Below are positions 27,122 through 51,218 of a stretch of 61,591 nt of DNA, piece after piece. The position numbers were made by a program, and so were the translations under genes. Every line of letters starts with the position of its first letter. Positions within the stretch are counted from its first letter, which is position 1. Under the pieces are notes generated by a model that had not been told where the DNA came from, ran no database searches, and was given only the letters and a program-made list of their open reading frames with translations. The DNA comes from Solirubrobacterales bacterium (GTDB lineage: Bacteria > Actinomycetota > Thermoleophilia > Solirubrobacterales > 70-9): the NCBI GenBank assembly GCA_035996525.1, contig DASYJK010000100.1, forward strand, positions 1 to 61,591, written 5' to 3'.

Positions 27122-27165
27122 AGTGGAGCTAGGCGGATTCGAACCGCCGACCTCCTGGGTGCGAT
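27122..27165 (-). repeat. att repeat: orphan 3' half of tRNA-Ala(CGC) (far end of island)
   Basis: AGTGGAGCTAGGCGGATTCGAACCGCCGACCTCCTGGGTGCGAT is identical to 51144..51187; no D-arm/5' acceptor follows, so it is not a functional tRNA. Confidence 0.85.
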
Positions 27166-27333
27166 GTCACTGCTCTGGACGCATTTTGGCAGCGAAAACC
27201 TGCTGATTTGCAGGACTTTACGTATAGCAGTCGGAGCGTTCTGAACTCGCAGATATGCGCGGATTAGCGGCGATGGTGGGCGTTTCGGGCACTCTGCACC
27301 GCGAGTGCCCGGGCTCAGGGCCAAACACCGGCC

Positions 27334-28881
27334 TCAAGGATGCCCGTCAGGCAGCCCTGCCTCTCGCAGGCGCCGGGCTGCCCGTACGAAGCCGTCTTGC
27401 AGCTCGGTCAGCTGCTGGGGAGGACGCGCTTTCGCAGCGGGATCGCCAAAGCGCGCGGTTGCCCAGTCCGACCGCCATTTCGCCATTCGCGCTCCAAGGT
27501 GGCTGTGGTCTGCCGTCTCGGCGCGCGGCTCGGCCAGGACCTGCCCGAGGTGGTTTGCCTGGCTCACCCGTTTCCCCATATCCGGAATTTGGTCATTCTC
27601 GTCAAGGCAGTGGCGAAGCAGGATCGTCTTGATGATCGAGGTGTGGTCGAAGAGGATCCGCTCACCGGCCGCGTCACGGGCCGTCGATCGAGGTGGCACG
27701 AACGGAGAGACGATCAGCGCCGGCACGCGCACGCCGTAGCGGTTGAACTTGGGGTCGTCGTCCGGGGAGGGCGGCGGCGAAACGTGGTCGAAGAAGCCGC
27801 CGTGCTCGTCGTAGGTGATGAGAAAGAGGGTCTTCGGCCATGCCTTGCTGCGGCGCAGGGCGTGGTAGATCGTGAGGACCAGATCCTGCCCGGCGGTTAC
27901 GTCCTCGGGAGGATGGTCGTCGTTGGAGTTGGGCCCCAGCATGTGGGCGTCCTTGAAGTGGGGGTCGATCCAGGAGACGGCCGGCAGGTTGTCGTGGGCC
28001 GCGTCATCAAGGAAGGACGGCCCCTCCTCGAGAAAGCCACCGACGACCCGCTCTTTGACACTGAGCTTTCGCTTGTCGAAATACGAGAATCGATCGTGGT
28101 GGGACAGCCGATACTCCGGGTCGATCATCCGCAGACTTGCGGGGTCGGTCGAATACCACCGCCAGTCGACTCCGGTCTGATCTAGGAAGCGAGGGAAGCT
28201 CGGTAAGTCGTAGAGGGGCGGACTGAGATCGTCGTGGGAGCCTTCGGCCCGCCCGGCCACCGCATAGAGGCGATTGGGCCAAGTTGCTCCTGGGACCGAG
28301 CTGAACCAGTGATCGCAGACCATAAAGTGCTCCGCCAGGAAGTCGTAGACCGGCAGATCCTCGGCGTCGTAGTAGCCCATCACGAGTCCGGGGTCCGGCA
28401 TCGGCCCGCCTTCCTTGGCTACGTAGTGCGCGGCATGCTTGGCGAAGTTGGCGGCGAAGCCGGTGTTTTCATTGGCCAGCTGCTCGCGCACATCGGAGCC
28501 GCTGTGGCCGGGATCCTCTGCCTCGGTCGCGAGCTTGGTGCGATCGAGGTGATGTGAGGCATAGGTGCTGCCTTCGTAGGTGTTGACCTGGCGCGGGTCG
28601 GCTGGGAGTCCCTCGATATCGCTGCGCCCGCCCTCCTGCGAGAGATACCCGAGCATGTGATCGAAGGAGCGGTTCTCAAGCATCAGCACGACGATGTGCT
28701 CCACCTGACCGAGGCGCTCGATCGCCTCGTCCCTCTCGATCTTGACCTTCCCGGTGGGCGTGGCCGGAACGGGAGCATTGAGAAGGTCGATGTCACCGCG
28801 GAACTTTGCGGGAAGCAATGGCTTCAGCAAGCGCAGGAGCCAGCCGACGCCCCCGGTCCCGGAGTCAGGGTTACTGCTCAT
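27334..28881 (-). CDS. Phosphoesterase-family protein (non-haemolytic phospholipase-C-like), no signal peptide seen
   Basis: HIVVLMLENRSFDHMLGYL, NRLYAVAG, ITYDEHGGFFDHV, GVRVPALIVSPF; ATG 28881 preferred over 28968. Confidence 0.8.
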   Translation of the reverse strand: MSSNPDSGTGGVGWLLRLLKPLLPAKFRGDIDLLNAPVPATPTGKVKIERDEAIERLGQVEHIVVLMLENRSFDHMLGYLSQEGGRSDIEGLPADPRQVNTYEGSTYASHHLDRTKLATEAEDPGHSGSDVREQLANENTGFAANFAKHAAHYVAKEGGPMPDPGLVMGYYDAEDLPVYDFLAEHFMVCDHWFSSVPGATWPNRLYAVAGRAEGSHDDLSPPLYDLPSFPRFLDQTGVDWRWYSTDPASLRMIDPEYRLSHHDRFSYFDKRKLSVKERVVGGFLEEGPSFLDDAAHDNLPAVSWIDPHFKDAHMLGPNSNDDHPPEDVTAGQDLVLTIYHALRRSKAWPKTLFLITYDEHGGFFDHVSPPPSPDDDPKFNRYGVRVPALIVSPFVPPRSTARDAAGERILFDHTSIIKTILLRHCLDENDQIPDMGKRVSQANHLGQVLAEPRAETADHSHLGARMAKWRSDWATARFGDPAAKARPPQQLTELQDGFVRAARRLREAGLPDGHP

Positions 28882-29019
28882 TTGCCCGAACCTGCCCGGA
28901 TGCGAAGCACCGGCCGATCCTAGGTTGGATCGCAAGCAACCGCAACCTAAACGCCTGAGTGACTTCATCTGCCATCGGTCGGGTTGTTAGTGTGAAACCG
29001 TCGAGGCGAGGAGATGGCA

Positions 29020-30717
29020 ATGAGCGCACAACTTCGGTTTTCGGTCCATCGCGGTGACGGCGCCGCGCTGCTCGCTTTCGACGTAGACGGGAGCCTGGCT
29101 CCTGAACTTGCCGGCTTTGCGGTCGAGTGCGAACCGCCGGGCGCGGCCGCCTACCCGATCCTCAACCGCCTCAGCTTCGGCCACGCGGTTACGGCAGATA
29201 CGACTCCTAGCGAACGCCGCTGGACTCCCACCACCGAAGCACCAATCCAGAAATTTCACTGGATTCACTATCCGAAAGACGTCCCCGCAGGAACCTTCAC
29301 CTACAGGGCAACGGCGATGCTCTTTGCGGCCGGGAGCGAGAGCGAGCTCGTGGCGGGCCCAACCGCAGAGTTCTCCCTTGAGCTCCGTGACGGAGGTTAC
29401 GGCGACTTCAAGCTCGGATTCACCCGCGGCTACATCTCCTCGCAGGCTTACGCCGAGCGCTTCGAGAACGCCGCGATCGAGCCGGACTCGCCGACGATCG
29501 GTTTCGACACCGCTCCCTACGAGGACCAGTATCGCTGGCTGGGTGCCCATGCACGCAAGCTGCTTTTCGAATTGATCGATGAGACGGTCGCTGACCCACA
29601 ACTCAGCCTCGACGTCTTCGCCTACGACTTCGATGAGCCCGATGTGATTACCAAGCTCGCGGAACTTGGTCCACGCTTGCGCCTGTATCTCGACAACTCG
29701 TCAAGCCATGTCGCCGGCAAAGGCTCCTCCCGCCAGCCGCGAGAGGTAGAAGCGCTAGAGAAGATCACGGCCTCAGCGGGCGCCGACAACGTGAAGGTCG
29801 GCCATTTCTCTCGGTATGCCCACGACAAGATCTTGATCCAGAAGCGGGGGGAAGATGCGATCAAGGTCCTCAGCGGCTCTGCCAACTTCTCCGTGAGGGG
29901 TCTCTATGTTCAATCGAACAACGTCTTCGTCTTCGACGATCCGACTGTCGCAGCGCTCTACGAGCAGGCGTTCACTCAAGCCTGGACGGATGCCAGTGGC
30001 TTCGGCAAGAGCTCGATCGCCGCTCAATGGTTCCCCGAACCGCATGGCACGAAGCCAAAACTGCCGGACTTCCAGGTCAGCTTTGCTCCCCATAGCGACC
30101 CGGAAGTCTCCCTGCGCCCGGTCGCGGACGCGATCAAAGAGGCGAAAAGCTCGGTTCTCTTTTCGATTATGGAGATCGGCACCGGCAGCGGAGCCGTTCT
30201 CGACGCCGTTCGGGCATTGCCAGATCGTTCTGAGATCTACGCGTTCGGCACGACCCAGCGTCTCGACGGTTCGCTGAAAGTTACTTCGCCGGGAACGAGC
30301 AGCCCTGTCTTCATTCCGTTCGAGTATCTGCACTCAAAGGTTCCAAAGCCCTTCCGCGTAGAGATCAGTGGTGGGTCAGGGCAAGTGATCCATCACAAGT
30401 TCGTCGTGGTCGATTTCACCGGCCCCGATGCGGTGGTATTCGCCGGATCATCGAATCTCGCCGCGGGCGGGGAGCACGAGAACGGAGACAACTTGCTCGC
30501 CTTCCGCGGTCCGGCAGTTGCTTCCACCTACGCAGTCGAGGCGATCCGACTTGTCGACCACTATCGGTTTCGGGAGGCCATGCTCGAAGCCACCGAAGAC
30601 GCCCCGTTGCAACTCGCGACCAGGAGCGCCAATTGGACGGCTCCCTACTTCGACACTTCTACGCCGAAGTATCGAGAGCGGATGCTCTTTGCGCCAGCGA
30701 GGCCGGAGACGCCCTAA
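29020..30717 (+). CDS. Phospholipase-D-superfamily protein with two HKD motifs and N-terminal beta-sandwich-like domain
   Basis: HDKILIQKRGEDAIKVLSGSANFS and HHKFVVVDFTGPDAVVFAGSSNLAAGGEHENGDN (HxK..D...GS.N twice); GAGGAG 6 nt before ATG 29020 (alt ATG 29014). Confidence 0.85.
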   Translation: MSAQLRFSVHRGDGAALLAFDVDGSLAPELAGFAVECEPPGAAAYPILNRLSFGHAVTADTTPSERRWTPTTEAPIQKFHWIHYPKDVPAGTFTYRATAMLFAAGSESELVAGPTAEFSLELRDGGYGDFKLGFTRGYISSQAYAERFENAAIEPDSPTIGFDTAPYEDQYRWLGAHARKLLFELIDETVADPQLSLDVFAYDFDEPDVITKLAELGPRLRLYLDNSSSHVAGKGSSRQPREVEALEKITASAGADNVKVGHFSRYAHDKILIQKRGEDAIKVLSGSANFSVRGLYVQSNNVFVFDDPTVAALYEQAFTQAWTDASGFGKSSIAAQWFPEPHGTKPKLPDFQVSFAPHSDPEVSLRPVADAIKEAKSSVLFSIMEIGTGSGAVLDAVRALPDRSEIYAFGTTQRLDGSLKVTSPGTSSPVFIPFEYLHSKVPKPFRVEISGGSGQVIHHKFVVVDFTGPDAVVFAGSSNLAAGGEHENGDNLLAFRGPAVASTYAVEAIRLVDHYRFREAMLEATEDAPLQLATRSANWTAPYFDTSTPKYRERMLFAPARPETP

Positions 30718-30796: not shown

Positions 30797-31702
30797 CTAA
30801 CTGAGCCTCCTCTTCACACTCGTCGGGGATTCGCCGACGAGCTCTTTGAACAGCTCGGTTGCGTCGGTCCAGCCATCTACGGCCTGCTGCCTCGTGCTAA
30901 GTCCGGTGTTCATCAGGACGTTTCGGAGGGTCCGGTGTCTCCTCCTCTCATCCTTGCTCCAGATATTGTCGATCCGCTTCGACAGTAGTAACTTTTCATC
31001 GGCAATCAGGTACGCATCGACGGCTTCTCGGGCGAATTTCTCCAGGTCGAGGTTTCCGACAAGAATTGTGTCCATCTGTTCGATCAACCGATGAGATCCA
31101 CGAATCATGGTCGTGGTCTCCTTGAATCGAGGAGCGCTGCCTTCATCAAAGCGAGCGAGAAAGGCCTCTACGTCGAGTCCGGCGTATTCCGACCGGACCC
31201 TTTCCTTGTTCGCTATTAGCGTGTCGCGTGCTGCGACGGTCGGCTTTCCGGTCGAGGTGCGGTGCAAAAGCCGATGGCGCCACTTACGAGCAACTTGGGC
31301 CAGTGCCCATGGCGCATTGTTGTTGACTCCGCAGAGGTCGGCCAGAGCCTCGAAGCGCTTGGTCGAATCGGACTGTCTTGCGAGGATTTTCGCCGTAGCC
31401 TGATCTTGGAGAAGCGTCGGTTTCGACGTGATGTCAGAGACGTAGGCATCGAGTCCGTCGATCAAGAGTGCCAGCGCGGCGAGTGACGCGAAACCGCTGC
31501 TCCGGTCCGCCGATCGCCTCGGATCTCTCGGGTCCCAGCTCGTCCACGAAGGACTAGACGCGTCCGCCCGGCCCTGACGAACGGCGTCGAGGCCCACCTC
31601 GATGGTGATCAGGAATTGGTTGGCCTGGCCGAGGTTCTCTTTGAAATTACGTCGGGCCGGAGATATCTCAAGGTTGATGAACTCCATCAAACCGCCCGAC
31701 AC
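30797..31702 (-). CDS. Hypothetical all-helical protein with an Rx4H (HEPN-like) motif
   Basis: Lower-GC ORF, no recognised family; central WRHRLLHR fits R-x4-H; alternative start ATG 31687 (MEFINLE...). Confidence 0.5.
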   Translation of the reverse strand: MSGGLMEFINLEISPARRNFKENLGQANQFLITIEVGLDAVRQGRADASSPSWTSWDPRDPRRSADRSSGFASLAALALLIDGLDAYVSDITSKPTLLQDQATAKILARQSDSTKRFEALADLCGVNNNAPWALAQVARKWRHRLLHRTSTGKPTVAARDTLIANKERVRSEYAGLDVEAFLARFDEGSAPRFKETTTMIRGSHRLIEQMDTILVGNLDLEKFAREAVDAYLIADEKLLLSKRIDNIWSKDERRRHRTLRNVLMNTGLSTRQQAVDGWTDATELFKELVGESPTSVKRRLS

Positions 31703-33284: not shown

Positions 33285-33318
33285 ACTACCGTGAACGATC
33301 AAGAAAGCGAGGCGGCAG

Positions 33319-35739: not shown

Positions 35740-37146
35740 ATGAATACCGGTGGGGAGGATAGCGTCGAGGTTGATCAGAGCGTTCCGCTTTTCGGCGCTC
35801 GCAAGCGGGCCAAGGAGCTCGCGGCAGAAACTTCTGAGCTCCGACGGGAGCTCGACCGGCTCGGCGGCCTTACCGTGCTTGAACTGGAAGCAAAGAAGCA
35901 GGCTTTGGCCGACGAGATAGAGGCCCAGCGCGAGCGTTTGGACAGCGAGAAGACCGCGGGCGTCGAGGCGCTAAGCAGGCAGATTGAGGAGGCGACGGCT
36001 GCGCTGAACGCCGAGCTGGCTGCAGCAAAATTGCAGAAAACAGAGCTCGAGCGCCAGATCGCCGAGCTGAACCAGCAAGTCGTGGTGACCGAGGAGACGG
36101 CGCTTCTCCAGGAAGCCGGTGTCTACGACTATCACCATCCGCTCAGCGATTCCGTCGAGTATCAAGAGGCACTGAAGGCGGTTCGTGAGCAGGTTAAAGC
36201 AATGACGCGCAAGGACGGCGGCGCGGTTAGGGGCGCCACTCAGTGGACCGTCAACGGTTCACTCCCCCAAGGCCGAAAGATGGTCCGGGACTTCTCGAAA
36301 CTGATGCTTCGTGCCTATAACGCCGAGGCAGACAACCTGGTTCGCAGCTTGAAGCCCTACAAGCTCGATGCCGCCAAGGAGCGCCTAACGAAGGTTGTCG
36401 CGACGATTGCACGCCTCGGACGGACGATGGACATCCACATATCGGGGCCCTATCACGAGTTGCGTGAATACGAGCTGGAGCTGACCGCCGACTACCGACA
36501 GAAGCTCGCCGAGGAGAAGGAGCGCGAGCGCGAAGAAAAAGAGCAGCTTCGCGAAGAGCGAAAAGCCCAGCAGGAAATGGAGCGCGAGCGGGCTCGGCTG
36601 GAAAAGGAGCGGCAGCACTATCTGAACGCATTGGAGTCGCTGCGCGAGAAAGGGGACGCGGAAGCAGTGGCCAGGCACGAGGCCGAGCTCGAGAGGATCC
36701 AACGGGCGATCGACGACGTCGACTATCGGGCAGCGAACATCCGCGCCGGCTACGTCTACGTGATCTCGAACGTGGGCTCATTCGGCGAGGGCGTCGTGAA
36801 GATCGGCTTGACCCGACGGCTCGATCCCTCGGAACGCGTGCGCGAGTTAGGCGACGCCTCAGTTCCCTTTCGTTTCGACACGCACGCGTTGCTGTTCTCA
36901 AAGGACGCGGTTGGGATCGAGGCAAGTCTTCATCAGCGCCTTGCCGCGTGCCGCGTAAACCGGATCAACACCCGCCGCGAGTTTTTCTACGCGACTCCCG
37001 CAGAGGTCAAGGCACATCTGCTGGATGTAGCGGGAGAGCTCCTGTCATACGAGGAGACTCCCGAGGCGCTGGAATTCCGTCAAAGCCAGAACATGGCCGC
37101 CGCTGAAACCGCCGATCGGGCATCGAACACTCTGCCGACGGTCTGA
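35740..37146 (+). CDS. DUF4041-like + T5orf172/MUG113 (GIY-YIG-superfamily) nuclease-domain protein
   Basis: GGGAGG + ATG; coiled coils; C-terminal GYVYVISNVGSFGEGVVKIGLTRRLDPSERVRELGDASVPFRFDTHALLFS...LHQRL...REFF is the T5orf172 signature. Confidence 0.75.
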   Translation: MNTGGEDSVEVDQSVPLFGARKRAKELAAETSELRRELDRLGGLTVLELEAKKQALADEIEAQRERLDSEKTAGVEALSRQIEEATAALNAELAAAKLQKTELERQIAELNQQVVVTEETALLQEAGVYDYHHPLSDSVEYQEALKAVREQVKAMTRKDGGAVRGATQWTVNGSLPQGRKMVRDFSKLMLRAYNAEADNLVRSLKPYKLDAAKERLTKVVATIARLGRTMDIHISGPYHELREYELELTADYRQKLAEEKEREREEKEQLREERKAQQEMERERARLEKERQHYLNALESLREKGDAEAVARHEAELERIQRAIDDVDYRAANIRAGYVYVISNVGSFGEGVVKIGLTRRLDPSERVRELGDASVPFRFDTHALLFSKDAVGIEASLHQRLAACRVNRINTRREFFYATPAEVKAHLLDVAGELLSYEETPEALEFRQSQNMAAAETADRASNTLPTV

Positions 37147-37167: not shown

Positions 37168-39771
37168 ATGGAGACCCCGGAGTTCAACCAGTTTCTCGAT
37201 GGACTCGAGTCGGAGCGGTTTGGAGAGCTAAGGCCTGCCCAAGCCGCTGTCCTCAACGAATACGCATTAGATCATCTCGAGACGCCAGATCTCGCCATCG
37301 AGCTCCCGACCGGCGCCGGTAAGAGCTTGGTAGCACTCCTAATCGGAGAGGCATGGCGTCAGCAAGGACGAACGGTGGCCGTACTCACCGGTAACAAAAC
37401 CCTTGCAACTCAGATGGAGCGAGAGGGTAACGACCTCAATGCCCCCGTCGCACGGATGGAGGGTCGCGGTCCCGACATCCCCTTGAGCTTAAGACGGCGG
37501 TATCGACGCGCCGCAGCAATTGGCGTGATGAATTACTGGGTGATGTTCAACACGAATCCAGTGGTCGACTCCGCAGATCTTTTGGTGATCGACGATGCCC
37601 ACCTCGCGGAGAATGCCCTCCAGAGCCTATTTTCGATGCGGATAGACCGCTACGCACATCCGCAACTCTTCTCGATGCTCGTTACGGAGCTTTCTGCACG
37701 CCTCCCGGACTATGCGAGTCTGGAGGATGCCCAAAGTGATGATCCCTATCCTCGCGCGGGCGTCGAGCTGATGTCCTTCCTGGATCAGGCGGGTGTGGCG
37801 GGCCGCATCCGGGAGGTCGTGGAGGGCGCGCCAGAGCTCGTCACTGATCGAGACCTACCATTTCGCTGGCGTGGCGTTCGAGACCGGCTCGCCGAGTGCA
37901 ACGTCTACCTATCCCAGCGGTCAATCACGATACGACCGTTCTGTCTGCCCGTGCAAACTCTGCCGCGCTGGAGCGATCCGACGCAGCGTCTCTACCTCTC
38001 GGCCACTATCGGAGATCCTGCTGACCTCCAACGCCGACTTGGATGTGGTCCCATCACCAAGATCGGCTCTGACGCTGATACCCCGACCTTAGGTCGAAGG
38101 TTGATCGTGCTCAATAACGACATAGAGGCACCCCAAGATCAGTTGCTGCCGGAGCGGGCAGCATCTGTTGTACTCGACGCGCTTCGCGTTACGCCGAAGG
38201 CAATTTGGCTTTGCGCATCGACCGCGCAGGCGGAGAGCTGGATGACGGCAATCCCTCCATGGTTGAATGCCCATGGGGTGCCCGTTGGGCCGGTGTGGCT
38301 ATTGAGCTCGATGGGAGATGAGATTGAGCTCTTCCAGTCTGCAGCTGCTGGTCACCTCTTCGTCGCTGGGCGGTTCGACGGAATGGATTTCGCCGGGGAT
38401 CAGTGCAGATTAGTTGTGCTGGCAACGTTGCCTCGCGCTGTAAACGATCAGGAGCAGTTCATCTCGGACTACTTACGTGATGCGTCGTTCCTGACGGGGC
38501 GGACTAACGAACGAATCATTCAGGCACTCGGTCGCTGCAATCGACATGCCGGTGATTTCGCTGTGTACGTGCTTGCGGATCGACGTTTCGCTGCTCACTT
38601 GGGGCAGGAGGCGAACCGGACCGGGTTGTCGGCTGCGATACAGGCTGAGCTTGATCTCGCAGAGGAGCTCGATGAGGTAGGGGACGCCGAGCTCTCAAGT
38701 CGAATCACGGAATTTCTAAACGGCGACTTCGCGGCCTACGATCAGCAGCTGGCTGAACTCAGGTACGAGCTGCCGCCGCCTTTGCTTCCCGCACCCGACG
38801 AAGCGGACGAGGAAGTTCGGGGTTGGCTCGCGCTGAACGGCCGGCAAGACTACTTGGCGGCGGAGACTCACTTTCGCAAGCGGCAAGAAGAACTTGGTTC
38901 CTTGGAGCTCCGGGAGCTCGGAGCCTTCATGCAGTACACGCAGGCAAAGGCGTCATTTCTTGAGGGATCGCGCGGGGATGCGGCTGCTGCAGCCCGCAGC
39001 AGGGTCGCGATGGATGGTGCAATTGAGCGAGGCGGGAGTTCGAGCGCTTGGTTTAACCGACTGCGCTCTTCCGTAGCGCGAAGCAGTCAGACGGACGAAG
39101 CGATAACTGTCAGCGGAAACGAGTTTCGAGCCGTTTGCGTGCGCAGCATTGATGAGCAGCTCGAGAGAACCCCGCCGGGATCGAAGCTTGACCGCTGGCG
39201 ACAACGGCTCGCAGATCAGCTGTCTTCAGGCTCGCATAACGAGTACGCGGCAGGTCTTGGCGCCATCGGAGGATTGCTGGGCTACAGCGCTGTCTTCCCC
39301 AAGTACGGTGCCGCAACTGACTGCCGGTGGCGCGGAGTATTTGGGAATGCCCGAGAGGCAATTACCTTCGAGTGCAAGATCGAGCACAAGCCGGGTTCTG
39401 AGATCGACGCACGGGCAGTGGGACAAGCTCACAATCAACGTGCCCGTGCGGTCACTGAGCTGGAGAAGAGTGGGTATGCAGTACGGGGTCTGATCGTCAC
39501 CCATCTCGATCGCCTCGCGGCCGATGCCGCCCCAGGCTTAGGCGAGATCGTGGTTATGTCGGCTGAGGCTGTTGCCGCCTTGCGATCCCGACTGGATCAG
39601 CTCTTGGCCAGCCTGGCCAGCGGATGGTCCCTCGAGGATCCACAGGCCCGGGTCGCTGCTGGTGAGGAGCTGGCTTCGAGGCTGCCGGACACTGGCTGGT
39701 TGATCGATGCGATCGATAATGCCGATCGATTCTTGAACGCTGAGTCGTTGCTGGCAGACTGGCCTGACTGA
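37168..39771 (+). CDS. SF2 (DExH-type) helicase fused to C-terminal PD-(D/E)xK nuclease-like domain
   Basis: ELPTGAGKS (I), LLVIDDAHL (II), LYLSATIGD (III), FVAGRFDGMDFAG (V), QALGRCNRH (VI); C-term ATDCRWRGVFGNAREAITFECKIEH = D..E.K. Confidence 0.8.
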   Translation: METPEFNQFLDGLESERFGELRPAQAAVLNEYALDHLETPDLAIELPTGAGKSLVALLIGEAWRQQGRTVAVLTGNKTLATQMEREGNDLNAPVARMEGRGPDIPLSLRRRYRRAAAIGVMNYWVMFNTNPVVDSADLLVIDDAHLAENALQSLFSMRIDRYAHPQLFSMLVTELSARLPDYASLEDAQSDDPYPRAGVELMSFLDQAGVAGRIREVVEGAPELVTDRDLPFRWRGVRDRLAECNVYLSQRSITIRPFCLPVQTLPRWSDPTQRLYLSATIGDPADLQRRLGCGPITKIGSDADTPTLGRRLIVLNNDIEAPQDQLLPERAASVVLDALRVTPKAIWLCASTAQAESWMTAIPPWLNAHGVPVGPVWLLSSMGDEIELFQSAAAGHLFVAGRFDGMDFAGDQCRLVVLATLPRAVNDQEQFISDYLRDASFLTGRTNERIIQALGRCNRHAGDFAVYVLADRRFAAHLGQEANRTGLSAAIQAELDLAEELDEVGDAELSSRITEFLNGDFAAYDQQLAELRYELPPPLLPAPDEADEEVRGWLALNGRQDYLAAETHFRKRQEELGSLELRELGAFMQYTQAKASFLEGSRGDAAAAARSRVAMDGAIERGGSSSAWFNRLRSSVARSSQTDEAITVSGNEFRAVCVRSIDEQLERTPPGSKLDRWRQRLADQLSSGSHNEYAAGLGAIGGLLGYSAVFPKYGAATDCRWRGVFGNAREAITFECKIEHKPGSEIDARAVGQAHNQRARAVTELEKSGYAVRGLIVTHLDRLAADAAPGLGEIVVMSAEAVAALRSRLDQLLASLASGWSLEDPQARVAAGEELASRLPDTGWLIDAIDNADRFLNAESLLADWPD

Positions 39772-42430: not shown

Positions 42431-42505
42431 ATTCCTTTGAGTCCCGGCGAGCCACGGATTCTCCCCTCCTCAAGAGAAGCTCGGCTTATGAGGGCGACAG
42501 AAGTC

Positions 42506-42540
42506 TCACGCGAGCGTCCACCCCGTGGGCGCTCGCGTGA
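42506..42540. other. Long inverted repeat (16-bp stem, 3-nt loop) in 484-bp intergenic region; candidate oriT/regulatory hairpin
   Basis: TCACGCGAGCGTCCAC-ccc-GTGGGCGCTCGCGTGA (one T.G position); upstream of both the methylase and the coupling-protein genes, so not a terminator for either. Confidence 0.35.
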
Positions 42541-42914
42541 TCCAGTTGTCGGCCGGCCTGGACGACCTATCGGAGCGCCGTCGTATCCGCGCAAAACACG
42601 CAGAAATCTGAGCCACCCCCCAAATGTATTAGCGCGGATTACCGGGGATTGCCCTCGATTGGGGAATCCGATTTTTTCGACTTGACTTCTCCATTTCGCG
42701 GAGCTACTCCGGAAGGAATGAACACCTTCCACTGCTATAGGAGGCCCCGTTTGAACGCAACTGAGCTCGTTCTCTTATTCACACACCCGACCGCACAACA
42801 AACCGCTTATCCGACCGCTCACGATCGGGCCGCGACCCCACCTATCCCGCGCTGTCTGTGCGCTTCCGCCGTCGCGATTTTGCCGACATCTCTGCTCCCC
42901 GTCGAGGTCGGTCC

Positions 42915-45518
42915 ATGAGCTCGGGCGATCGACAGGACCCGAGGCCGATGATCGCGATCCTCGTCGGCGCTCTCAGCATCGCCGCCTGGCGGACCATCTC
43001 GCCCATCAGCCCCGGCCAGGTGCTCTCCGCCGTCGGCTCGCTCGCGCCCCTCGCTCTCGGCGCCCTCGCTATCGCCTCCGCGCTGGCTATGCAGCGGCTG
43101 CTCTTGACCAACCGCACGCTCGCCAGTCGCCGGGAGGTGGCCGTAGTGCCGGCCGACGACTTCGACCCCAAGACCGACGCCGTCCTTCGCTTCGCCGCCG
43201 AGCTCGCCGCGACCGAACGCCGTCTGCGCGGCCGGTTCGATCGCCGCGCCCAGGCGGTGCGGGTGCGACTCACCAACGACGCCGAGGGTCGGCTTGTCTA
43301 CCTGCTGAGCGTGCCGGAGCGGTCGGGCAAGGCTCTGCGGGGAGCCCTCGGCGCCTACGAGGGCTTCGAGGTGCGCGAGCCCAAGGACGTGCTCGGCGAG
43401 CGAAAGGGCGCCGAGGAGTTGGCCACCGTCCGAACCGAGCTGACCCTCGCCCGCTCGAGTCTCGAGCCCTTGGCCCAGCTCTCCTTGGAGCCCGATCCGC
43501 TGCAGGGCTTCGCCTCGGCCCTCGAGGTCTCCCGGTCGAAGAAGGGGGAGGAGGTCAGCGTCTGCATTGACCTACTCCCAGCCTCTGGCCATCGCCGCGA
43601 ACGCCTGCGCCGCTCCCTGCGCCGACGGGCCGCCCGCAAGTACGGCGAGCGCCCGAGTCTGCTCGAGCGCCTCGAAGGCAACGAGCGCAGCAAGGGTCGC
43701 CCCGGCCCGGACAAGCTGCTCGAGCGCCGGATGGTCAACGACGCTCTGGAGGAGAAACTGCGCGACGCCGGCACGCTCTTCGAAGCGCAGATCCTGCTGC
43801 GCTGCCGGGCCGTCGATCGCGCTCGCGCCAAGTCGACGATGCAGCTCCTGCTCGGCGCCTTTGCGCCCTTCACCGCCCAGAATTGGCTGCGCGCCCGCGG
43901 CCTCTCGCTCGGCCTTGCCTTCCTCGGCTCCGACCTGCCGCTGCGGCGCGCGCGCTTCGACCGCCGCATGGACACCGGCCTCTTCGCTCCGCCCAAGCGC
44001 GCGGTCCTGACCGCCAGCGAGATGGCCGGCTTCCTCAAGCCTCCGAGCATGCACTGCAGGGGCGACAACGTCGCCCGGGCCGGGACGCTGCTCGCAGCGG
44101 CGCCGAAGCTGCCGGAGTTCAGGCCGGACAAGGCCGACGTGATCCCCCTCGGCAAGGTCGGCACCAACGGCTCTGAGCGCGTCCTCGGCGTCAGGGCCGC
44201 CGACACCTTCTTCTCCTACATCGCCGGCCGCTCGCGTTATGGCAAGACCGAGCTCGCGATCGCCCAGTTCGTCCACCTGGTCCGCTCGGGCCATGGCGGC
44301 TTCTTCCTCGACCCCCACGGCGATGCCCTGGAGCGGATCCGTCCCTACCTGAGCGATCCGAAGCTGCGCAGCCGGGTGGTGGAGATCGACCTCGGCCCCG
44401 GCCATGCCGCGGCTCAGCCCGGCTGGAACCTCTTCGAGCTCGGCGGCGAGGACGGAGGGGAGGAGCGGGTCGCCGCGTTGGTCGACGCCTTCTCCTCGGT
44501 GCTCGAATGGGGCGAGCGCTCGACGCGGGCGATCAACCTGACGAGTCACGCCGCGGCCGCCCTGGTGCGGATCGCCAAGGTGTTGCCGCCCGAGTTGGCG
44601 CCGACGATCTTTCAGCTGCCGACCCTGCTCTCCGACAAGATCTGGCGGGAGGCGACCATGCCCTTCCTGCCCGCGGCCTCCCGGCGCTTCTGGCGCGACC
44701 GCTTCCCGCTGCTCAGTCCCGAGGCGATCACCCCGGTCACCAACCTCGTCGACCGCCTGCAGCTCTCAAGCGCTATGCGCACCCTGCTCGGCCAGAGCCA
44801 GGGCAGCTTCCGCATCCGCGAGGCGATGGACGAGGGGCTAATCGTCCTCGCCTGCCCGGGCGCCGGCCACTCGCAGGAGCGCTTGCTGGCGAACCTGCTG
44901 GTCTTCGACCTCCTGCACTCCGCTCGCAGCCGCGGCGAGCTGGCCGCGAAGAGGCGAAAGCCCTTCTGGGTCTTCCTCGACGAGGTGCAGAGCTATGACG
45001 GCGGGGGCTCGGGCAGCCTCGCCGCTCTGCTCGAGCAGAGCGCCAAGTTCGGGCTGCGGGCCGTACTCCTGAACCAGAACCCCGAGCGGCTCTCCGCCCA
45101 GACCCTGAACGCGCTCACCACCAACCGCTCCCACATGCTGGCCACCGCGCTCAACTCCCACGCGGCGGCGCTGCTGACCAAAGAGTGGGGTGGGCAGCCG
45201 AGCCCCGCTGTCATGGTCGGGCTGCCGCGCTTTCAGTTCGTCACCCAGGTCACCCACGAAGGAGAGCTAAGCCGCCCCTTTGCCCTTCGAGGGATCCGGG
45301 TCGAGGACGTGCACGAGAAGTCGGAGGCCGGTACCGGCGGACCCCTCGGCGGTGCCGTCCGGCGGGCGGAGCCCGCGCAGGTCTCCGAGCACTTGGAGAC
45401 GCTCGATGACCGGATCCTCGCTCACCTGAAGGGCCTCGCCCCACCCGCCGAGGAGGAGCCCGAAGAGCCCGAGGAGGAGAGTCCGTACTGGCTCGGAGGC
45501 AAGACCGGTGGCAACTGA
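42915..45518 (+). CDS. TraD/VirD4-like (type IV coupling protein-like) membrane-anchored P-loop ATPase
   Basis: Two N-terminal TM helices, Walker A GRSRYGKT, Walker B FWVFLDEVQSY; followed by a replication-relaxation gene. Confidence 0.7.
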   Translation: MSSGDRQDPRPMIAILVGALSIAAWRTISPISPGQVLSAVGSLAPLALGALAIASALAMQRLLLTNRTLASRREVAVVPADDFDPKTDAVLRFAAELAATERRLRGRFDRRAQAVRVRLTNDAEGRLVYLLSVPERSGKALRGALGAYEGFEVREPKDVLGERKGAEELATVRTELTLARSSLEPLAQLSLEPDPLQGFASALEVSRSKKGEEVSVCIDLLPASGHRRERLRRSLRRRAARKYGERPSLLERLEGNERSKGRPGPDKLLERRMVNDALEEKLRDAGTLFEAQILLRCRAVDRARAKSTMQLLLGAFAPFTAQNWLRARGLSLGLAFLGSDLPLRRARFDRRMDTGLFAPPKRAVLTASEMAGFLKPPSMHCRGDNVARAGTLLAAAPKLPEFRPDKADVIPLGKVGTNGSERVLGVRAADTFFSYIAGRSRYGKTELAIAQFVHLVRSGHGGFFLDPHGDALERIRPYLSDPKLRSRVVEIDLGPGHAAAQPGWNLFELGGEDGGEERVAALVDAFSSVLEWGERSTRAINLTSHAAAALVRIAKVLPPELAPTIFQLPTLLSDKIWREATMPFLPAASRRFWRDRFPLLSPEAITPVTNLVDRLQLSSAMRTLLGQSQGSFRIREAMDEGLIVLACPGAGHSQERLLANLLVFDLLHSARSRGELAAKRRKPFWVFLDEVQSYDGGGSGSLAALLEQSAKFGLRAVLLNQNPERLSAQTLNALTTNRSHMLATALNSHAAALLTKEWGGQPSPAVMVGLPRFQFVTQVTHEGELSRPFALRGIRVEDVHEKSEAGTGGPLGGAVRRAEPAQVSEHLETLDDRILAHLKGLAPPAEEEPEEPEEESPYWLGGKTGGN

Positions 45519-46413
45519 GACGAGCGCCCGGCCCGCCGCCGGCCTGCCCGAGACGGCGGTCGAGATCCTCGCCTCCCTGATCCAGCACCGAGTGCTCACG
45601 ACCGAGCAGGTGAGGGAGGTCCACCTGCCCGCGAGTCACAGTCGCTGGGCGCAGCAGGTGCTGGGCCGATTGAGGGAGGCGGAGCTGGTTGCCTTCAGCC
45701 GCCCACCGCATTCCGGCCAGAGGCTCTGGTTTGCGACCGAGCATGGGCTGAGGCTGGCGCAGGAGGCCCACGCCCTGGAGGAGAGCCCGAGGCCGCTGTC
45801 GGCGAGCGACGTCGCCGGACAGCTCCGCGCCCACACTCTCGCCGTCAACGACGCCGGCATCGCCTTCCTGCGCGCGGCGCGCGAGCGGGGCGATGAGTTC
45901 GGGCCGCTCTCATGGCGCCACGAGGTAGCGCATCCACTCTCCCGCGGCCGCGGCCGTCGACGCCGCACCCTCATCGCCGACGCGGTGCTTACCTACCTGC
46001 GAGAGGAGGGAGGGCGCCTCGCCCTCGAGCAGCGCTTCCTGGAGCTCGACCGGGCGACCCTCTCGGTCGACCGCCTGGTCGCCGAGCTCGCCCGCTACGC
46101 GGAACTGCATCGGTTCAAGGGCAGCGACGGGGAGCCGGTCTGGAAGCAGCACTACCCGCGCTTCCCGAGGGTCCACTGCGTCCTCGCCGGCGCCTCCCGA
46201 GCCGCGCTCGAGCGCCGACAGGCCAGCGTCAGCGCCCTGCTCTGTGGCAACCCTCGGTTCGCCGGGGCGCGTGCGGTGCGGATCTCGATCTGCCTTCTGG
46301 GGGACCTTGTGAGTCAGGGACCCTTCGCACCGATCTTCGGCGACGTCCGCCAACCCGAGCGGGCGGTCGACTGGCTCGGGAGCCCGCCGGCTGGCGAGGA
46401 GAGGAAGCGCTAG
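45508..46413 (+). CDS. Replication-relaxation family protein (relaxase-like)
   Basis: ILASLIQHRVLTTEQV..., HTLAVNDAGIAF, ADAVLTY...LELDRAT; GGAGG 8 nt before GTG 45508, overlaps the upstream stop. Confidence 0.7.
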   Translation: MATETSARPAAGLPETAVEILASLIQHRVLTTEQVREVHLPASHSRWAQQVLGRLREAELVAFSRPPHSGQRLWFATEHGLRLAQEAHALEESPRPLSASDVAGQLRAHTLAVNDAGIAFLRAARERGDEFGPLSWRHEVAHPLSRGRGRRRRTLIADAVLTYLREEGGRLALEQRFLELDRATLSVDRLVAELARYAELHRFKGSDGEPVWKQHYPRFPRVHCVLAGASRAALERRQASVSALLCGNPRFAGARAVRISICLLGDLVSQGPFAPIFGDVRQPERAVDWLGSPPAGEERKR

Positions 46414-46889
46414 TGGTGGACCGTGGAAGCAACGCACGCCGGGGGCACCAGGGCGAGACCCGCCATCGCTCGCGCCATCCCGAGGAGGTTCGTCTCACCA
46501 GCGAGACGATCGAGGTTCTGGCTCAGCGGATCGCCAAGCTGGTGAGGGTAGATCGCCCGACCGCGCAGCCGCCCCGACTGATGAACGCTGCCGAGGTCGC
46601 GCAGTGGTGCGGCGTCGATCGCTCCTGGGTCTACACCCATGCCGATGAGCTCGGGGCCCGCCGGCTCGGCGGTGGAGAGCGCCCGCGACTGCGCTTCGAT
46701 CCGAGCGAGGTGAGCGCCCGGATCGACACGATCGGGGCCTCCGAGTCTCGCCTTGGGCCTGGATCGGTGTCGATTGCCGGCGATGCCCGCCGCGACTCGC
46801 TTCCACGCCGACACAGAGCTATTGTCGGCAGGCAAGCAAGAACGGCCGGGCGGCGCAGGAACGCCCCCGGCCCGGCGCCGGAGAAGTGA
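46413..46889 (+). CDS. Excisionase-like (MerR-type) HTH protein
   Basis: LMNAAEVAQWCGVDRSWVYTHADELGARRLGGGERPRLRFDPSEV; directly upstream of the integrase; start uncertain (GTG 46413 overlapping TAG). Confidence 0.5.
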   Translation: MVDRGSNARRGHQGETRHRSRHPEEVRLTSETIEVLAQRIAKLVRVDRPTAQPPRLMNAAEVAQWCGVDRSWVYTHADELGARRLGGGERPRLRFDPSEVSARIDTIGASESRLGPGSVSIAGDARRDSLPRRHRAIVGRQARTAGRRRNAPGPAPEK

Positions 46890-46989: not shown

Positions 46990-48285
46990 GTGGCTGGAAG
47001 ATCGGAAGGGCAGGTTCTGGAGAGGCGATGGAAGAGCGGTCGCGGATACGCCCTTCGCTTCCGCGCCTACGGGGAGCGCCAGTACCTGACGCTCGGCCTG
47101 GAGTCCGAAGGCTGGACCCGCAAGCGCGCCGAGCAGGAGCTCGACAACGTAATGGCCGATGTGAGGCGCGGACTTTGGGTTCCTCCGCCGCGGGGCCGAA
47201 AGGCCGCCGATGAGCGGGCCACGCAGACGATGCCGACCTTCGGTGAGTTCGCCTTGCGCCTGCACGAGGCGCGCCGAGGTGAAGTCAGCCGGCACACCCA
47301 CGAGTACATGGAGTGGTCGCTCAGCCACCTGATCCCCTACTTCGGCGACTGGCCGCTGGACGAGATCGACGTCCCGGCGGTCGACGCCTACCGTCGCTAC
47401 ATGGTCGAGCTCTCCGATGCCCGGCGCCGCGCGATCGAGGCCGAAAACCCGATGCGCAACAAGCACGGGCAGGTTCTGCGGCCGCTCGGCGCCTCGACGA
47501 TCAACAAAGCGATCGACGGGCTGCAGTGGGTTCTTTCGATGGCGGTGGAGTACGAACACATCCACCGCAATCCGGCGCTGGGCAGACGCCGCCGGCTCAA
47601 GGTGACGAAGCGCGCACCCGTGCACCTCGACTCGGTTGAGCAGATCAAGACGCTGCTGGAGGCCGCTGGCCAGCTTGACCGCGACTGCCACTTTCACACG
47701 ACCGACCGTCGTCCGATCATCGCGACGCTCCTCTTCGCCGGCCTCAGAGCCAACGAACTCTGCGCTCTGACCTGGCGCGACGTCGATCTCGCCAACGGCC
47801 GCCTTCACATCGCGCGCTCGAAGACCACGGCCGGGCTGCGGGAGATCCACCTGCTGCCGATCCTCCGCGACGAACTCGCAATGCAGAAGGCGCGTGCCGC
47901 TCGCACCGGAGCTGACGATTCGGTCTTTCCCACCAGCGCGGGCGGTCGGCGGGACAAGGACAACCTGCGCAACCGAGTCCTCGCCTCTGCCGTTAAACGG
48001 GCGAACGAACTGCTGGAGGAACGGGGCGCGATGCCGCTACCGCGTGGTCTGACGCCGCACAAACTGCGGCACACCTTCGCCTCGATCCTCGTCGCGACCG
48101 GCGAGGACCCCGCCTCGGTGATGACCCAGCTCGGCCACACCGATCCGAAGTTCACCCTGCGCGTCTACACCCACATCATGCGCCGGGGAGATGCGGAGCG
48201 GGACCGGCTCAAGGCGCTGGTCAACGGGGAGAGCTTCGAGGAAAGAGGGTTGGATCTAGCCGACGAGAAAGGGGCGCGTCAGTGA
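46990..48285 (+). CDS. int: Tyrosine site-specific integrase
   Basis: AGGAGG 8 nt before GTG 46990; N-terminal SAM-like core-binding region, LFAGLRANEL (Arg I), HKLRHTFAS (H-x-x-R), LGHTDPKFTLRVYTH (catalytic Tyr). Confidence 0.9.
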   Translation: MAGRSEGQVLERRWKSGRGYALRFRAYGERQYLTLGLESEGWTRKRAEQELDNVMADVRRGLWVPPPRGRKAADERATQTMPTFGEFALRLHEARRGEVSRHTHEYMEWSLSHLIPYFGDWPLDEIDVPAVDAYRRYMVELSDARRRAIEAENPMRNKHGQVLRPLGASTINKAIDGLQWVLSMAVEYEHIHRNPALGRRRRLKVTKRAPVHLDSVEQIKTLLEAAGQLDRDCHFHTTDRRPIIATLLFAGLRANELCALTWRDVDLANGRLHIARSKTTAGLREIHLLPILRDELAMQKARAARTGADDSVFPTSAGGRRDKDNLRNRVLASAVKRANELLEERGAMPLPRGLTPHKLRHTFASILVATGEDPASVMTQLGHTDPKFTLRVYTHIMRRGDAERDRLKALVNGESFEERGLDLADEKGARQ

Positions 48286-48497: not shown

Positions 48498-48547
48498 CCC
48501 ACAGGCGCGCTCGTGCCTACACGCATCAGGAAATAGCAAGGGATGAT

Positions 48548-49099: not shown

Positions 49100-49141
49100 G
49101 GCTTCTGCGGTAGCGGCTTCAGTCCAGGAGACGCTGCGCGC

Positions 49142-49815: not shown

Positions 49816-50117
49816 TGCGAACCTCGCCTGACACGAGCAAGTCGCTCGGATCCGTCTTCGATGAAGTACTGGCCCGCCACGTAATGGCCGGCCTGCCAGT
49901 GCATTCCCTCCAGCAGGTTGCAGGTCGAGACCTCCAAGCCCGCCGCCAGTTTGAGGATCGTGTCCAGGCGGGGGAGTCGCTGTCCGCGCTCGAGCTCGCC
50001 GACGTCAGCCCTGTGGAGCTCGCTCAAGTGGGCGAGCTCCTCTTGGCTGAAGCCGGCGTGTCGGCGCGAGCGCCAGACGTTGCGGCCGAATCGGGTGGCG
50101 AGCTGGGACTCCATCAA
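49812..50117 (-). CDS. XRE-family HTH protein, paralogue 2
   Basis: RFGRNVWRSRRHAGFSQEELAHLSELHRADVGELERGQRLPRLDTILKLAAGLEVSTCNLLEGMHW. Confidence 0.75.
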   Translation of the reverse strand: MMESQLATRFGRNVWRSRRHAGFSQEELAHLSELHRADVGELERGQRLPRLDTILKLAAGLEVSTCNLLEGMHWQAGHYVAGQYFIEDGSERLARVRRGSH

Positions 50118-50422
50118 CCACCCCTGGTGCTGTCGCTACCAGCGTAGGAACCGGAGTGCTGGACCCAGCTTCCGAGCCGCCACGCCATCCCGGCCAAGAG
50201 CTCGCAGGGCTCGGCTTCGATTGCGCCGCCGAGCTTCACGATCGTGTCCAGGCGCGGCAGCCGCAGGCCGCGCTCCAGCAGGCTGATCTGGGTCCTGTGC
50301 AGGCCGGCGCGCTCGGCGGTCTGCTCCTGAGAGAGATCGACCCGATCGCGGAGCACGATGAGGTTCTCGGCGAAGCGTCGTTTGAGATCGGCACGTGTGG
50401 AGATGGCTGCGGGCGGCGTCAC
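50114..50422 (-). CDS. XRE-family HTH protein, paralogue 1
   Basis: RFAENLIVLRDRVDLSQEQTAERAGLHRTQISLLERGLRLPRLDTIVKLGGAIEAEPCELLAGMAW. Confidence 0.75.
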   Translation of the reverse strand: MTPPAAISTRADLKRRFAENLIVLRDRVDLSQEQTAERAGLHRTQISLLERGLRLPRLDTIVKLGGAIEAEPCELLAGMAWRLGSWVQHSGSYAGSDSTRGG

Positions 50423-50820
50423 CCGGCGCCTCCGCCTCGGCTAATGGCGCCCAGGACCCGGCCGCATGCCTCGACAGCCAGGTCGGTCCGGTGCAGGACC
50501 TCGCGGTCATCGCCCGAGCGCGGCAGCGTGTCGGCGTAGAGCTGGGAGGCTTCGTCGCGTAGGCGCTCGATCACTCGCTTCAGGTCCTCGACCGGCATCG
50601 TCAACTCGACGCTCCCATCGGCCGGTAGATCGGAGTGATCGGGCCAGCCAAGGTCCTCGAGCAGCAGCCGTAGGTCATCGGCGAAGGCGTGGCCGAGGGT
50701 GCCTGCCTTCTCGTATTCGCGTGACTCGATGGCGAGCCAGAGGTCTCCGATTCCACTCAGGTGGTCGAGGACCTGCGTGTAGAGGGCCTCGCGCTGGGCG
50801 GCGGTAATGGTGACGGGCAT
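50419..50820 (-). CDS. Hypothetical helical protein, first gene of the XRE-array operon
   Basis: GAGGAGGG 4-5 nt before ATG 50820 (MPVTITAAQREALY...); stop overlaps next start (ATGA). Confidence 0.55.
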   Translation of the reverse strand: MPVTITAAQREALYTQVLDHLSGIGDLWLAIESREYEKAGTLGHAFADDLRLLLEDLGWPDHSDLPADGSVELTMPVEDLKRVIERLRDEASQLYADTLPRSGDDREVLHRTDLAVEACGRVLGAISRGGGAG

Positions 50821-51145
50821 GGCGCCCTCCTCTCGGTAGGGCACCGAGGCGCAGCCGTGATGCCGCCCGATCGCTAGATCGGCGAGTACGGTTCCTCGTG
50901 CATCGAAGGCTTCTACTTCGGTGCCGGCCCCGGGGTGTTCATGCACCGCCGGGGCACTATCTATCTGTTGCCCGACCGTAGCTCTGTGCGCCGCTCAAAG
51001 CGAGTCCGAATCGGCGTCAATCGCCACCAATCCGCGCATATCGGCGCCATTTGAGGCACTCGTGCCCGAAAAAGTGCCCAAAGGACGGCGCTTCTCCGTG
51101 GCGAGTAAAACGCGGAAGTCGCCGACGTGCAGGGACTTCCAGAAG

Positions 51146-51218
51146 TGGAGCTAGGCGGATTCGAACCGCCGACCTCCTGGGTGCGATCCAGGCGCTCTGC
51201 CAGCTGAGCTATAGCCCC
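51146..51218 (-). tRNA. tRNA-Ala (anticodon CGC)
   Basis: GGGGCTA/TAGCTCC acceptor with G3:U70, D arm GCTC..GAGC, anticodon loop ATCGCAC, T arm GGCGG-TTCGAAT-CCGCC, discriminator A; CCA not encoded. Confidence 0.9.

Follow-up and report, generated by a model that had tools for sequence, protein, structure and literature searches.

A probable integrative mobilizable element with anti-phage cargo in a tRNA-Ala(CGC) gene of an uncultured Solirubrobacterales bacterium

What occupies the DNA between an intact tRNA-Ala(CGC) gene and a second, partial copy of its 3′ part in an uncultured Solirubrobacterales bacterium, and by what means could it move? The stretch in question, contig DASYJK010000100.1 of assembly GCA_035996525.1 (61,591 nt, forward strand), is referred to below as the window, meaning the whole of the DNA analysed. 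A sequence-only reading of it had proposed an integrative element of about 24 kb between the two copies. Our analysis leads us to regard the segment 27122-51187 (24,066 bp) as probably an integrative mobilizable element (IME), one that would need the type IV secretion system (T4SS) of a helper for its transfer. Loci and contigs compared with the window are cited by L numbers.

A duplicated tRNA segment delimits the element

The element is bounded by the following two sites.

27122..27165, minus strand: attL, a partial tRNA-Ala(CGC) with nt 32-73 and 2 further nt, identical to 51144-51187 over 44 bp in direct orientation
51144..51218, minus strand: attR within an intact tRNA-Ala(CGC) (tRNA 51146-51218, repeat 51144-51187)

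The 44-mer AGTGGAGCTAGGCGGATTCGAACCGCCGACCTCCTGGGTGCGAT has exactly two copies in the window, 27122-27165 and 51144-51187, both on one strand. It was found in none of 100 shuffles and has no further copies at up to 3 mismatches, and an ungapped Hamming scan of the window (up to 16 mismatches in 44) gave no third, degenerate att copy in the same orientation that would mark the end of an older islet. On the minus strand, Rfam (66.9 bits) calls tRNA-Ala(CGC) at 51146-51218 and ARAGORN at 51145-51218, so that the right repeat runs from nt 32, in the anticodon loop, to nt 73 of the tRNA and takes in 2 downstream nt. The left copy has neither the D-arm nor the 5′ acceptor, no tRNA was called there by ARAGORN or Rfam, and the sequences diverge immediately beyond both ends of the repeat. 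The repeat, its exact coordinates, its position within the tRNA and the missing 5′ half of its left copy had all been described correctly in the sequence-only reading. The attL/attR geometry that it proposed, that of a tyrosine integrase inserting into the 3′ part of a tRNA gene, is supported by an intact integrase and by sibling elements at the same tRNA.

Parts of the window recur in three public contigs, which come from two JGI samples and a Logan assembly. The left junction was recovered in L087 (window 25577-44413, 99.995%) and L088 (window 23319-34457, 100%), from the two JGI samples, and the right junction in L001 (window 41303-56397, 99.66%). Since both junctions are present in independent assemblies, and since the sibling element L083 carries both repeats on one contig, the structure is not an assembly artefact. 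Two outcomes had been named that would speak against an element, namely relatives carrying the same 24 kb without a duplicated tRNA segment, or a repeat produced by the assembly; the siblings and the independent junction contigs contradict them.

A backbone shared with sibling elements

Two siblings, L083 (ATPase 98% identical) and L085 (96%), abut the same tRNA-Ala(CGC). Compared with the window, both are about 93-96% identical over 42677-48499 and 88% identical from 49170-51148 onwards, and the cargo of both is unrelated to that of the window, consisting of RES-Xre and an SMC-like ATPase in L083 and of AIPR, RelA_SpoT and a methyltransferase (MTase) in L085. In L083 the two repeat copies are separated by 20.2 kb, and there is resemblance to the window in the left arm and in the left flank as well. 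A third sibling, L086, has 84% DNA identity in the backbone, shares a restriction-modification (RM) gene pair with the window and abuts a different sequence; at its right junction (18330-18420) neither ARAGORN nor Rfam calls a tRNA, the sequence being only loosely like a tRNA T-arm, and L086 may use an alternative target site. Farther off, L100 combines the ATPase and relaxase genes with a different tyrosine integrase beside tRNA-Gly, and in L101 and L103 their partners are large serine recombinases. Backbones that are nearly identical, cargo that has been exchanged and integration modules that have been swapped together mark a living family of mobile elements, which answers the intent of the check in relatives that had been proposed.

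The part of the backbone concerned with integration and regulation, in and around 42.4-51.1 kb, comprises the following features.

27166..27310, plus strand: left att arm, with a degenerate phased GATT repeat at 27261-27285 and the left arm of inverted repeat I2 at 27248-27295
42431..42947, plus strand: non-coding leader of the transfer operon, candidate operator or origin of transfer (oriT), with a hairpin at 42492-42554, a GATT triple at 42636-42660 and conserved palindromes at 42699-42730
46413..46889, plus strand: 158-aa winged helix-turn-helix (wHTH) protein, candidate excisionase (recombination directionality factor, RDF) or regulator (phrog_66, 'excisionase and transcriptional regulator', 9.4e-6)
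46990..48285, plus strand: tyrosine integrase, 431 aa (Phage_integrase 2.3e-21; phrog_1 8.5e-56)
48282-48497, plus strand: 71-aa open reading frame (ORF), kept in siblings L085 and L086, no family matches
48674-49099, plus strand: 141-aa ORF, in a second, small variable spot, no family matches
49142-49468, 49465-49815, 49812-50114 and 50114-50422, minus strand: four tandem Xre-type helix-turn-helix (HTH) genes (HTH_3, 1e-8 to 1e-10)
50419-50946, minus strand: 175-aa protein with no assigned function, in the same module as the four Xre genes
50947..51143, plus strand: right att arm, with a phased GATT triple at 51009-51033 (minus), the right arm of I2 at 50999-51046 and the palindrome GGCACTCGTGCC at 51056-51067

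The integrase, already recognised at these coordinates by the sequence-only reading, is intact, with the catalytic Arg (GLRANE), HxxR (HKLRHTF), His (LGH) and Tyr (VYTH) all present. An Xis-like HTH protein had been announced as well; the best candidate for an excisionase is the 158-aa wHTH protein upstream of int, which has weak matches to HTH_29 and HTH_17 besides phrog_66 and would be the RDF. The 71-aa ORF downstream has no matches. The DNA between the 71-aa ORF and the HTH genes varies in content among the siblings. The Xre-type genes beyond it are overlapping paralogues with 32-45% mutual identity, and their module, which is kept in L083, L085, L086, L019 and L101, is a hallmark of the element family.

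As to the arms, the right one is highly conserved in L083, L085 and L086, and the stretch 27092-27310, which spans the left one, is 74% identical to the left end of L083. The two arms are paired by the 48-nt inverted repeat I2 (27248-27295 versus 50999-51046, 77% complementary). The pattern SGATT-N5-SGATT-N5-SGATT, with an expectation of 0 in the window, occurs exactly twice, once upstream of the ATPase gene (42636-42660) and once, on the minus strand, in the right arm (51009-51033). The phased GATT pentamers (10 bp spacing) are in inverted orientation between the two att arms, with a degenerate copy inside I2 in the left arm, and are candidate binding sites for the arm domain of the integrase, the RDF or a regulator.

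From 42677 onward the leader is 93-96% conserved in the siblings; a promoter and terminator scan of the 42.4-43.0 kb leader found nothing. The hairpin at 42492-42554 (inverted repeat I14) is near-perfect, its 30-nt arms enclosing a loop of 3 nt; it is situated between the MTase and ATPase genes, which are divergent, and is kept in L086 only.

Transfer genes and the question of self-transfer

Two overlapping genes at the head of the backbone are putatively concerned with transfer.

42948..45518, plus strand: 856-aa membrane P-loop ATPase of VirB4/VirD4 fold, putative coupling protein (predicted fold and gene context)
45508..46413, plus strand: Replic_Relax putative relaxase of MOBC type, PD-(D/E)XK fold (PF13814, 9.2e-27)

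PF13814 corresponds to the MOBC relaxase superfamily of PD-(D/E)XK-fold nucleases (PMC5357655, PMC3424549). The replication-relaxation protein of the sequence-only reading belongs here, its domain covering positions 1-178 of the 191 of the profile. The acidic, putatively catalytic residues D158, E179 and D181 do not vary among 6 homologues with identities as low as 34%.

The ATPase contains a Walker A (GRSRYGKT) and a Walker B (FLDEVQ) motif, and two N-terminal helices in its model are hydrophobic in sequence and putatively transmembrane. Nothing significant was found for it in Pfam, NCBIfam or the PDB by phmmer and profile searches, TrwB_AAD_bind reaching only E=0.044. When the full-length AlphaFold2 model (predicted local distance difference test, pLDDT, 70) was compared with Foldseek, the best match was TrwK/VirB4 of R388 (E 2e-6, about 790 aligned columns), followed by Cagbeta/VirD4 (E 1e-3); a model of the N-terminal domain (pLDDT 65) matched only TrwK/VirB4 (E 8e-6, TM-score 0.44). 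No FtsK structure was among the 50 matches listed in either search. Of the coupling-protein-like ATPase that had been proposed from the sequence, what stands is a P-loop ATPase beside a relaxase; the protein belongs to no Pfam family, its predicted fold resembles VirB4 over the whole length, N-terminal domain included, and a coupling role is suggested by gene context.

The ATPase belongs to a very large family, which comprises 6818 clusters at 50% identity (E<=1e-3) and has no Pfam model. At least 897 homologues, all unannotated, belong to the same clade, and 121 Streptomyces plasmids carry members labelled only 'ATP/GTP-binding protein' or 'hypothetical'. On the two Streptomyces plasmids examined (L098, L099) the gene lies within T4SS-like gene clusters. 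On plasmid NZ_CP109080 a homologue with 30-36% identity is located downstream of a separate AAA_10 (VirB4-type) gene and of genes for a lytic transglycosylase/C40 peptidase and a protein weakly resembling VirB6. The genes are arranged likewise on NZ_CP107897, where the ATPase homologue is directly followed by a Replic_Relax gene. Similarly, in L103, from Solirubrobacterales, a 60% identical homologue and Replic_Relax come after TcpE-like and AAA_10 genes. From this arrangement in the plasmids and L103 we infer that the ATPase is the second, relaxase-adjacent ATPase of a T4SS, with a coupling role. Profile searches of the window's proteins found no AAA_10/VirB4, VirB6, TcpE or hydrolase genes in the element or in the rest of the window, and the element, having no T4SS genes, would therefore be mobilizable and not conjugative. 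It does not conform to an integrative and conjugative element (ICE) of T4SS type, since its single ATPase stands beside the relaxase with no other mating-pair-formation (MPF) genes. It has what an IME is expected to have, namely no complete MPF apparatus, a site-specific recombinase with a presumed directionality factor (the integrase and the excisionase-like wHTH protein) and direct att repeats at a specific target, which is also the target of L083 and L085.

Several points weigh against this reading. The fold of the ATPase is nearer to VirB4 than to canonical type IV coupling proteins, and its models are of moderate confidence (pLDDT 65-70, TM-score 0.3-0.44) with no sequence match to any solved protein. 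No oriT was identified, the conserved leader at 42.4-42.95 kb being a candidate, and no helper T4SS was seen in the 61.6-kb window. Most siblings examined also have no T4SS genes, which fits an IME and would equally fit a minimal system of self-transfer. Finally, neither an empty attB from the same population nor a circular attP was found, so that present-day excision, and with it the activity of the element, is inferred.

The alternative that fares best is a self-transmissible minimal conjugative element, in which the VirB4-fold ATPase, resembling a VirB3-VirB4 fusion, and the MOBC relaxase would suffice without a helper T4SS, much as the single protein TraB does in Streptomyces. The two apparently membrane-spanning helices followed by VirB4-like N-terminal and C-terminal domains, the size of the ATPase family (6818 clusters) and the fact that five of the six distinct siblings examined (L083, L085, L086, L100 and L101, not L103) carry only the ATPase-relaxase pair are in its favour. 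However, wherever T4SS genes do occur, the ATPase is accompanied by a separate AAA_10 VirB4, a VirB6-like protein and a hydrolase, and thus appears as an accessory or coupling component; in addition, the element has no gene for a pore or a cell-wall hydrolase, and IMEs typically outnumber ICEs in well-studied groups (PMC5357655). We therefore consider self-transfer unlikely. A wider proposal, in which the ATPase would define an undescribed, very large actinobacterial family (>6,800 clusters at 50% identity) of membrane-anchored, VirB3/VirB4-like proteins that replace canonical VirD4 as relaxase-coupling ATPase, and in which this ATPase and the MOBC nuclease might suffice for single-stranded DNA transfer without a separate T4SS, appears to us doubtful, if a shade less so.

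Defence cargo

The low-GC left two thirds of the element are exchangeable cargo, mostly anti-phage systems, among them a cyclic oligonucleotide-based antiphage signalling system (CBASS). Gene calls for the element were taken from the public contigs, that of the phosphoesterase from L087.

27334..28881, minus strand: phosphoesterase of the phospholipase C / acid phosphatase family (Pfam PF04185, 1.6e-70)
29014..30717, plus strand: PLD-like nuclease-type protein (PLDc_2 7.6e-15; weak DrmC match, 5.8e-6)
30797..31687, minus strand: 296-aa protein, no match in Pfam, PADLOC, NCBIfam or PHROGs
31916-32341, minus strand: capH (HTH), CBASS regulator (PADLOC capH 1.7e-10; Pfam HTH_3)
32334-33209, minus strand: capP (M78 peptidase), CBASS regulator (PADLOC capP 7.6e-24; Pfam Peptidase_M78)
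33319-34413, plus strand: CBASS CD-NTase (PADLOC cyclase 4.4e-61)
34410-34883, plus strand: CBASS E2-like Cap2 (PADLOC E2 1.3e-18)
34880-35428, plus strand: CBASS 1TM effector (PADLOC 1.1e-28)
35740..37146, plus strand: PD-Lambda-1, with DUF4041 and T5orf172 nuclease domain (PADLOC 5.7e-115; Pfam domains)
37168..39771, plus strand: PDC-S28 candidate defence helicase, DinG-like (PADLOC 5.6e-77; Pfam Helicase_C_2 and DEAD)
39927-40712, plus strand: type II RM restriction endonuclease, REase (PADLOC REase_II 4.4e-9)
40709-42358, minus strand: type II RM Eco57I-like N6 MTase (PADLOC MTase_II 4.8e-116)

The dense nuclease and defence cargo noticed from the sequence was thus borne out by PADLOC and Pfam. 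The CBASS is complete, with CD-NTase, effector, E2 and CapH/CapP, the capH and capP genes being divergent from the CD-NTase operon. The REase/MTase pair is the one that recurs in sibling L086. The pair is also present (94% and 81% protein identity) at 5101-7601 of L015, another metagenome-assembled genome (MAG), directly beside tRNA-Ala(CGC), where the backbone is missing. Islands at this hotspot seem to swap RM modules among themselves.

A GC profile agrees with the less GC-rich stretches that had been seen inside the element, with values of 0.60-0.65 at 27-32 kb and 36-43 kb; the flanks and the backbone at 43-47 kb reach about 0.70-0.72. ARAGORN called a tRNA-Leu(cag) of 94 nt at 31691-31784 (minus), overlapping the start of the 296-aa gene; Rfam gave no match there even at E<=10, and the call is probably a false positive.

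The tRNA-Ala(CGC) hotspot and the search for an empty site

The DNA 3′ of tRNA-Ala(CGC) differs in nearly every related genome. Eight of these genomes (L007, L008, L010, L011, L030, L042, L049 and L051) have two or three direct copies of the 3′ segment of the tRNA, 0.17-7.6 kb apart, and at the four loci checked (L007, L008, L011 and L051) the repeats enclose islets without an integrase, which carry AbiEi, type ISP RM, DUF4062, DndB-like and Dam, or KAP NTPase genes. Such islets may be mobilized in trans by the integrases of elements like the one described here. The best reading is that the element occupies a tRNA hotspot at which defence islets accumulate across Solirubrobacterales, the tRNA being a site of tandem accretion.

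An empty site in close relatives had been named as a check, and none was found. By synteny, 80 GTDB genomes gave no clean one, the genes for the tRNA, an acidic protein and the ABC transporter being kept and the 3′ DNA variable. A metagenome scan for the left flank joined to an intact tRNA returned 8 contigs, none of them from the species of the window and none above 94% identity in the right flank, and the attP junction pattern had 0 matches in IMG/VR viral contigs.

Just left of attL, 56 bp (27066-27121) show a similarity of about 78% to the DNA directly 3′ of an intact tRNA in L008, L012 and eight metagenome contigs. Three observations argue against taking this similarity as the signature of an empty site, and for the arm of an islet instead. 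Within the 129-bp segment of this kind that lies 3′ of the intact tRNA, the distal half resembles the window's right arm at an equal distance from the tRNA; the segment precedes two of the three att copies in L008; and some contigs have 22 bp that resemble the right arm just before the distal att copy. The segment is thus probably an arm of a related islet family. If 27066-27121 is the arm of another islet, the left 'flank' at 21.9-27.1 kb would be an older accreted one, probably a decayed islet that was pushed outward by the later insertion of the 24-kb element. The stretch 21900-27121 encodes HipB (93 aa), HipA (23728-24990) and a 617-651-aa protein with RTX calcium-binding repeats, has a GC content of 0.60-0.65 at 22-25 kb and is absent from the closest syntenic relative, L004. 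The last gene on the left side that is common with this relative is Exo_endo_phos (20940-21872, 89% DNA identity to L004), and no outer boundary of the putative older islet was found.

It could also be that the 24 kb are a fixed genomic island, integrated long ago and inherited only vertically, with backbone genes that are decaying or have been repurposed. The missing attB and attP junctions would agree with this, as would a backbone GC equal to that of the host and the many relatives that keep integrase-less islets between the same repeats. On the other hand, the two 44-bp repeats match without exception, no backbone ORF is disrupted, the catalytic residues of the integrase are in place, and backbones 93-96% identical with wholly different cargo in different metagenomes imply recent spread and cargo turnover. 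A fixed island is in our view improbable, slightly more so than self-transfer.

A prophage, a phage satellite or a classical actinomycete integrative and conjugative element (AICE), the last moving double-stranded DNA by an FtsK/TraB translocase, might likewise be integrated in a tRNA gene and possess an integrase, an excisionase-like gene and Xre repressor-like genes, and the ATPase does match a PHROG, phrog_5156, which has no assigned function. Yet searches of the element against Pfam and PHROGs gave no capsid, terminase, portal, primase or Rep gene, the FtsK_SpoIIIE domain (PF01580) is absent, as is FtsK from the 50 fold matches listed per search, and a relaxase, which TraB systems do not use, is present; this alternative is very improbable. 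That there is no element at all, the repeat being a chance match or an assembly chimera in a metagenome-derived window, is effectively refuted, given 0 matches expected by chance, junctions reproduced in independent assemblies of different samples and the same architecture on the single contig of L083.

Proposed mechanism of movement

With an IME as the preferred reading, the integration step can be read from the anatomy of the junctions: the tyrosine integrase acted on the chromosomal tRNA-Ala(CGC) and on an attP that contained nt 32-73 of the tRNA, and their recombination regenerated the tRNA at attR and left a 44-bp partial copy at attL. Excision would be carried out by the integrase with the 158-aa wHTH protein as directionality factor, and the phased GATT repeats in both arms may serve as protein-binding (arm-type) sites. 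The MOBC-type Replic_Relax nuclease would then nick an oriT, probably in the conserved leader at 42.4-42.95 kb, and the membrane ATPase of VirB4/VirD4 fold would couple the relaxase-DNA complex to a T4SS, which a conjugative element resident in the same cell would presumably provide in trans; relatives of this module that have T4SS genes do exist. One can presume that the four Xre regulators hold the transfer operon off. As its cargo is exchangeable and mostly anti-phage, the element amounts to a portable defence island at a tRNA hotspot.

Chromosomal surroundings

The outer flanks of the window are ordinary chromosomal DNA, encoding an MFS transporter, a P-type ATPase, IlvD, a sigma factor, LipA/LipB and a 2-oxoacid dehydrogenase E2. 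The 80 loci that were anchored on the ABC-2 permease gene (53251-54024) are all from uncultured Solirubrobacterales or Thermoleophilia MAGs, and the order tRNA-Ala(CGC), acidic protein, ABC ATPase, permease, tRNA-Ala(UGC), LipB is kept in about 40 of them. In the window, tRNA-Ala(CGC) (51144-51221) and tRNA-Ala(UGC) (54066-54143) form a 78%-complementary inverted pair, 2.8 kb apart, with the genes for the acidic protein and the ABC transporter in between; some relatives have the UGC copy in inverted orientation. HTH-type genes are found beside it at several loci, and tRNA-Ala(UGC) may be a second insertion site. L045 has two full tRNA-Ala(CGC) genes (688-760 and 987-1059), 300 bp apart and about 7 kb off the usual position. 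Far outside the element, a gene for a NERD-domain nuclease (8007-8759, minus) adjoins a GC dip (0.62) at 9000-10000, and the region near 8-10 kb may be another small acquired segment.

Significance and relation to known systems

The element is ordinary in kind and leaves the current understanding of integrative elements unchanged; it comes from a poorly studied lineage, and a full-text literature search found no description of Solirubrobacterales mobile elements. It provides a well-delimited example of the movement of defence systems in Solirubrobacterales/Thermoleophilia, a soil group that is abundant and uncultured. The split between backbone and cargo and the tRNA-Ala(CGC) hotspot offer a handle for mining defence genes from soil metagenomes, the 296-aa and PLD-like genes being examples, and a large unannotated family of 'ATP/GTP-binding proteins' of Streptomyces plasmids becomes linked to conjugative DNA processing.

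AICEs such as pSAM2 have actinobacterial hosts, encode a tyrosine integrase and Xis and are inserted in the 3′ part of tRNA genes, where the repeat measures about 40-60 bp. They transfer double-stranded DNA through an FtsK-like Tra protein, and their genes include Rep, Spd and Nudix. The element described here is similar in its actinobacterial host, its tyrosine integrase and its insertion into the 3′ part of a tRNA, and differs in having a relaxase and an ATPase of VirB4/VirD4 fold and none of FtsK-like Tra, Rep, Spd and Nudix. Closer in the transfer genes are the Streptomyces linear plasmids NZ_CP107897 and NZ_CP109080 and the ICE-like L103, which encode homologous ATPases (30-36%, and 60% for L103), with Replic_Relax directly downstream of the ATPase in NZ_CP107897 and L103 as in the window; in contrast to the element, which has none of these, they also encode an AAA_10 VirB4 and VirB6-like or TcpE-like proteins, and the plasmids a lytic transglycosylase/C40 hydrolase.

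The streptococcal IME_Class_8, which combines a VirD4 coupling protein, a Rel_PF13814/MobC relaxase and an integrase (Coluzzi et al. 2017, PMC5357655), shares the compact order of coupling-type ATPase, PF13814 relaxase, (excisionase) and integrase, the lack of a T4SS, site-specific integration and cargo alongside. The differences are that the element of the window inserts into a tRNA by a tyrosine integrase whereas IME_Class_8 uses a serine integrase, that its ATPase is without a Pfam family and has a VirB4-like N-terminal domain instead of being a canonical VirD4, that it has four tandem Xre regulators, and that its host belongs to Thermoleophilia and not to Firmicutes. With the defence islands described at tRNA and other hotspots (PMC10121019; PMC10201445) it has in common several variable defence systems on an integrase-bearing element, the cargo differing between siblings; what sets it apart is its lineage, its backbone and a hotspot that also holds integrase-less islets between the same tRNA repeat. 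Taken together, the element is of a known kind, that of IMEs with defence islands at tRNA hotspots, and is mildly new in its lineage, its unannotated ATPase family and its four-regulator module.

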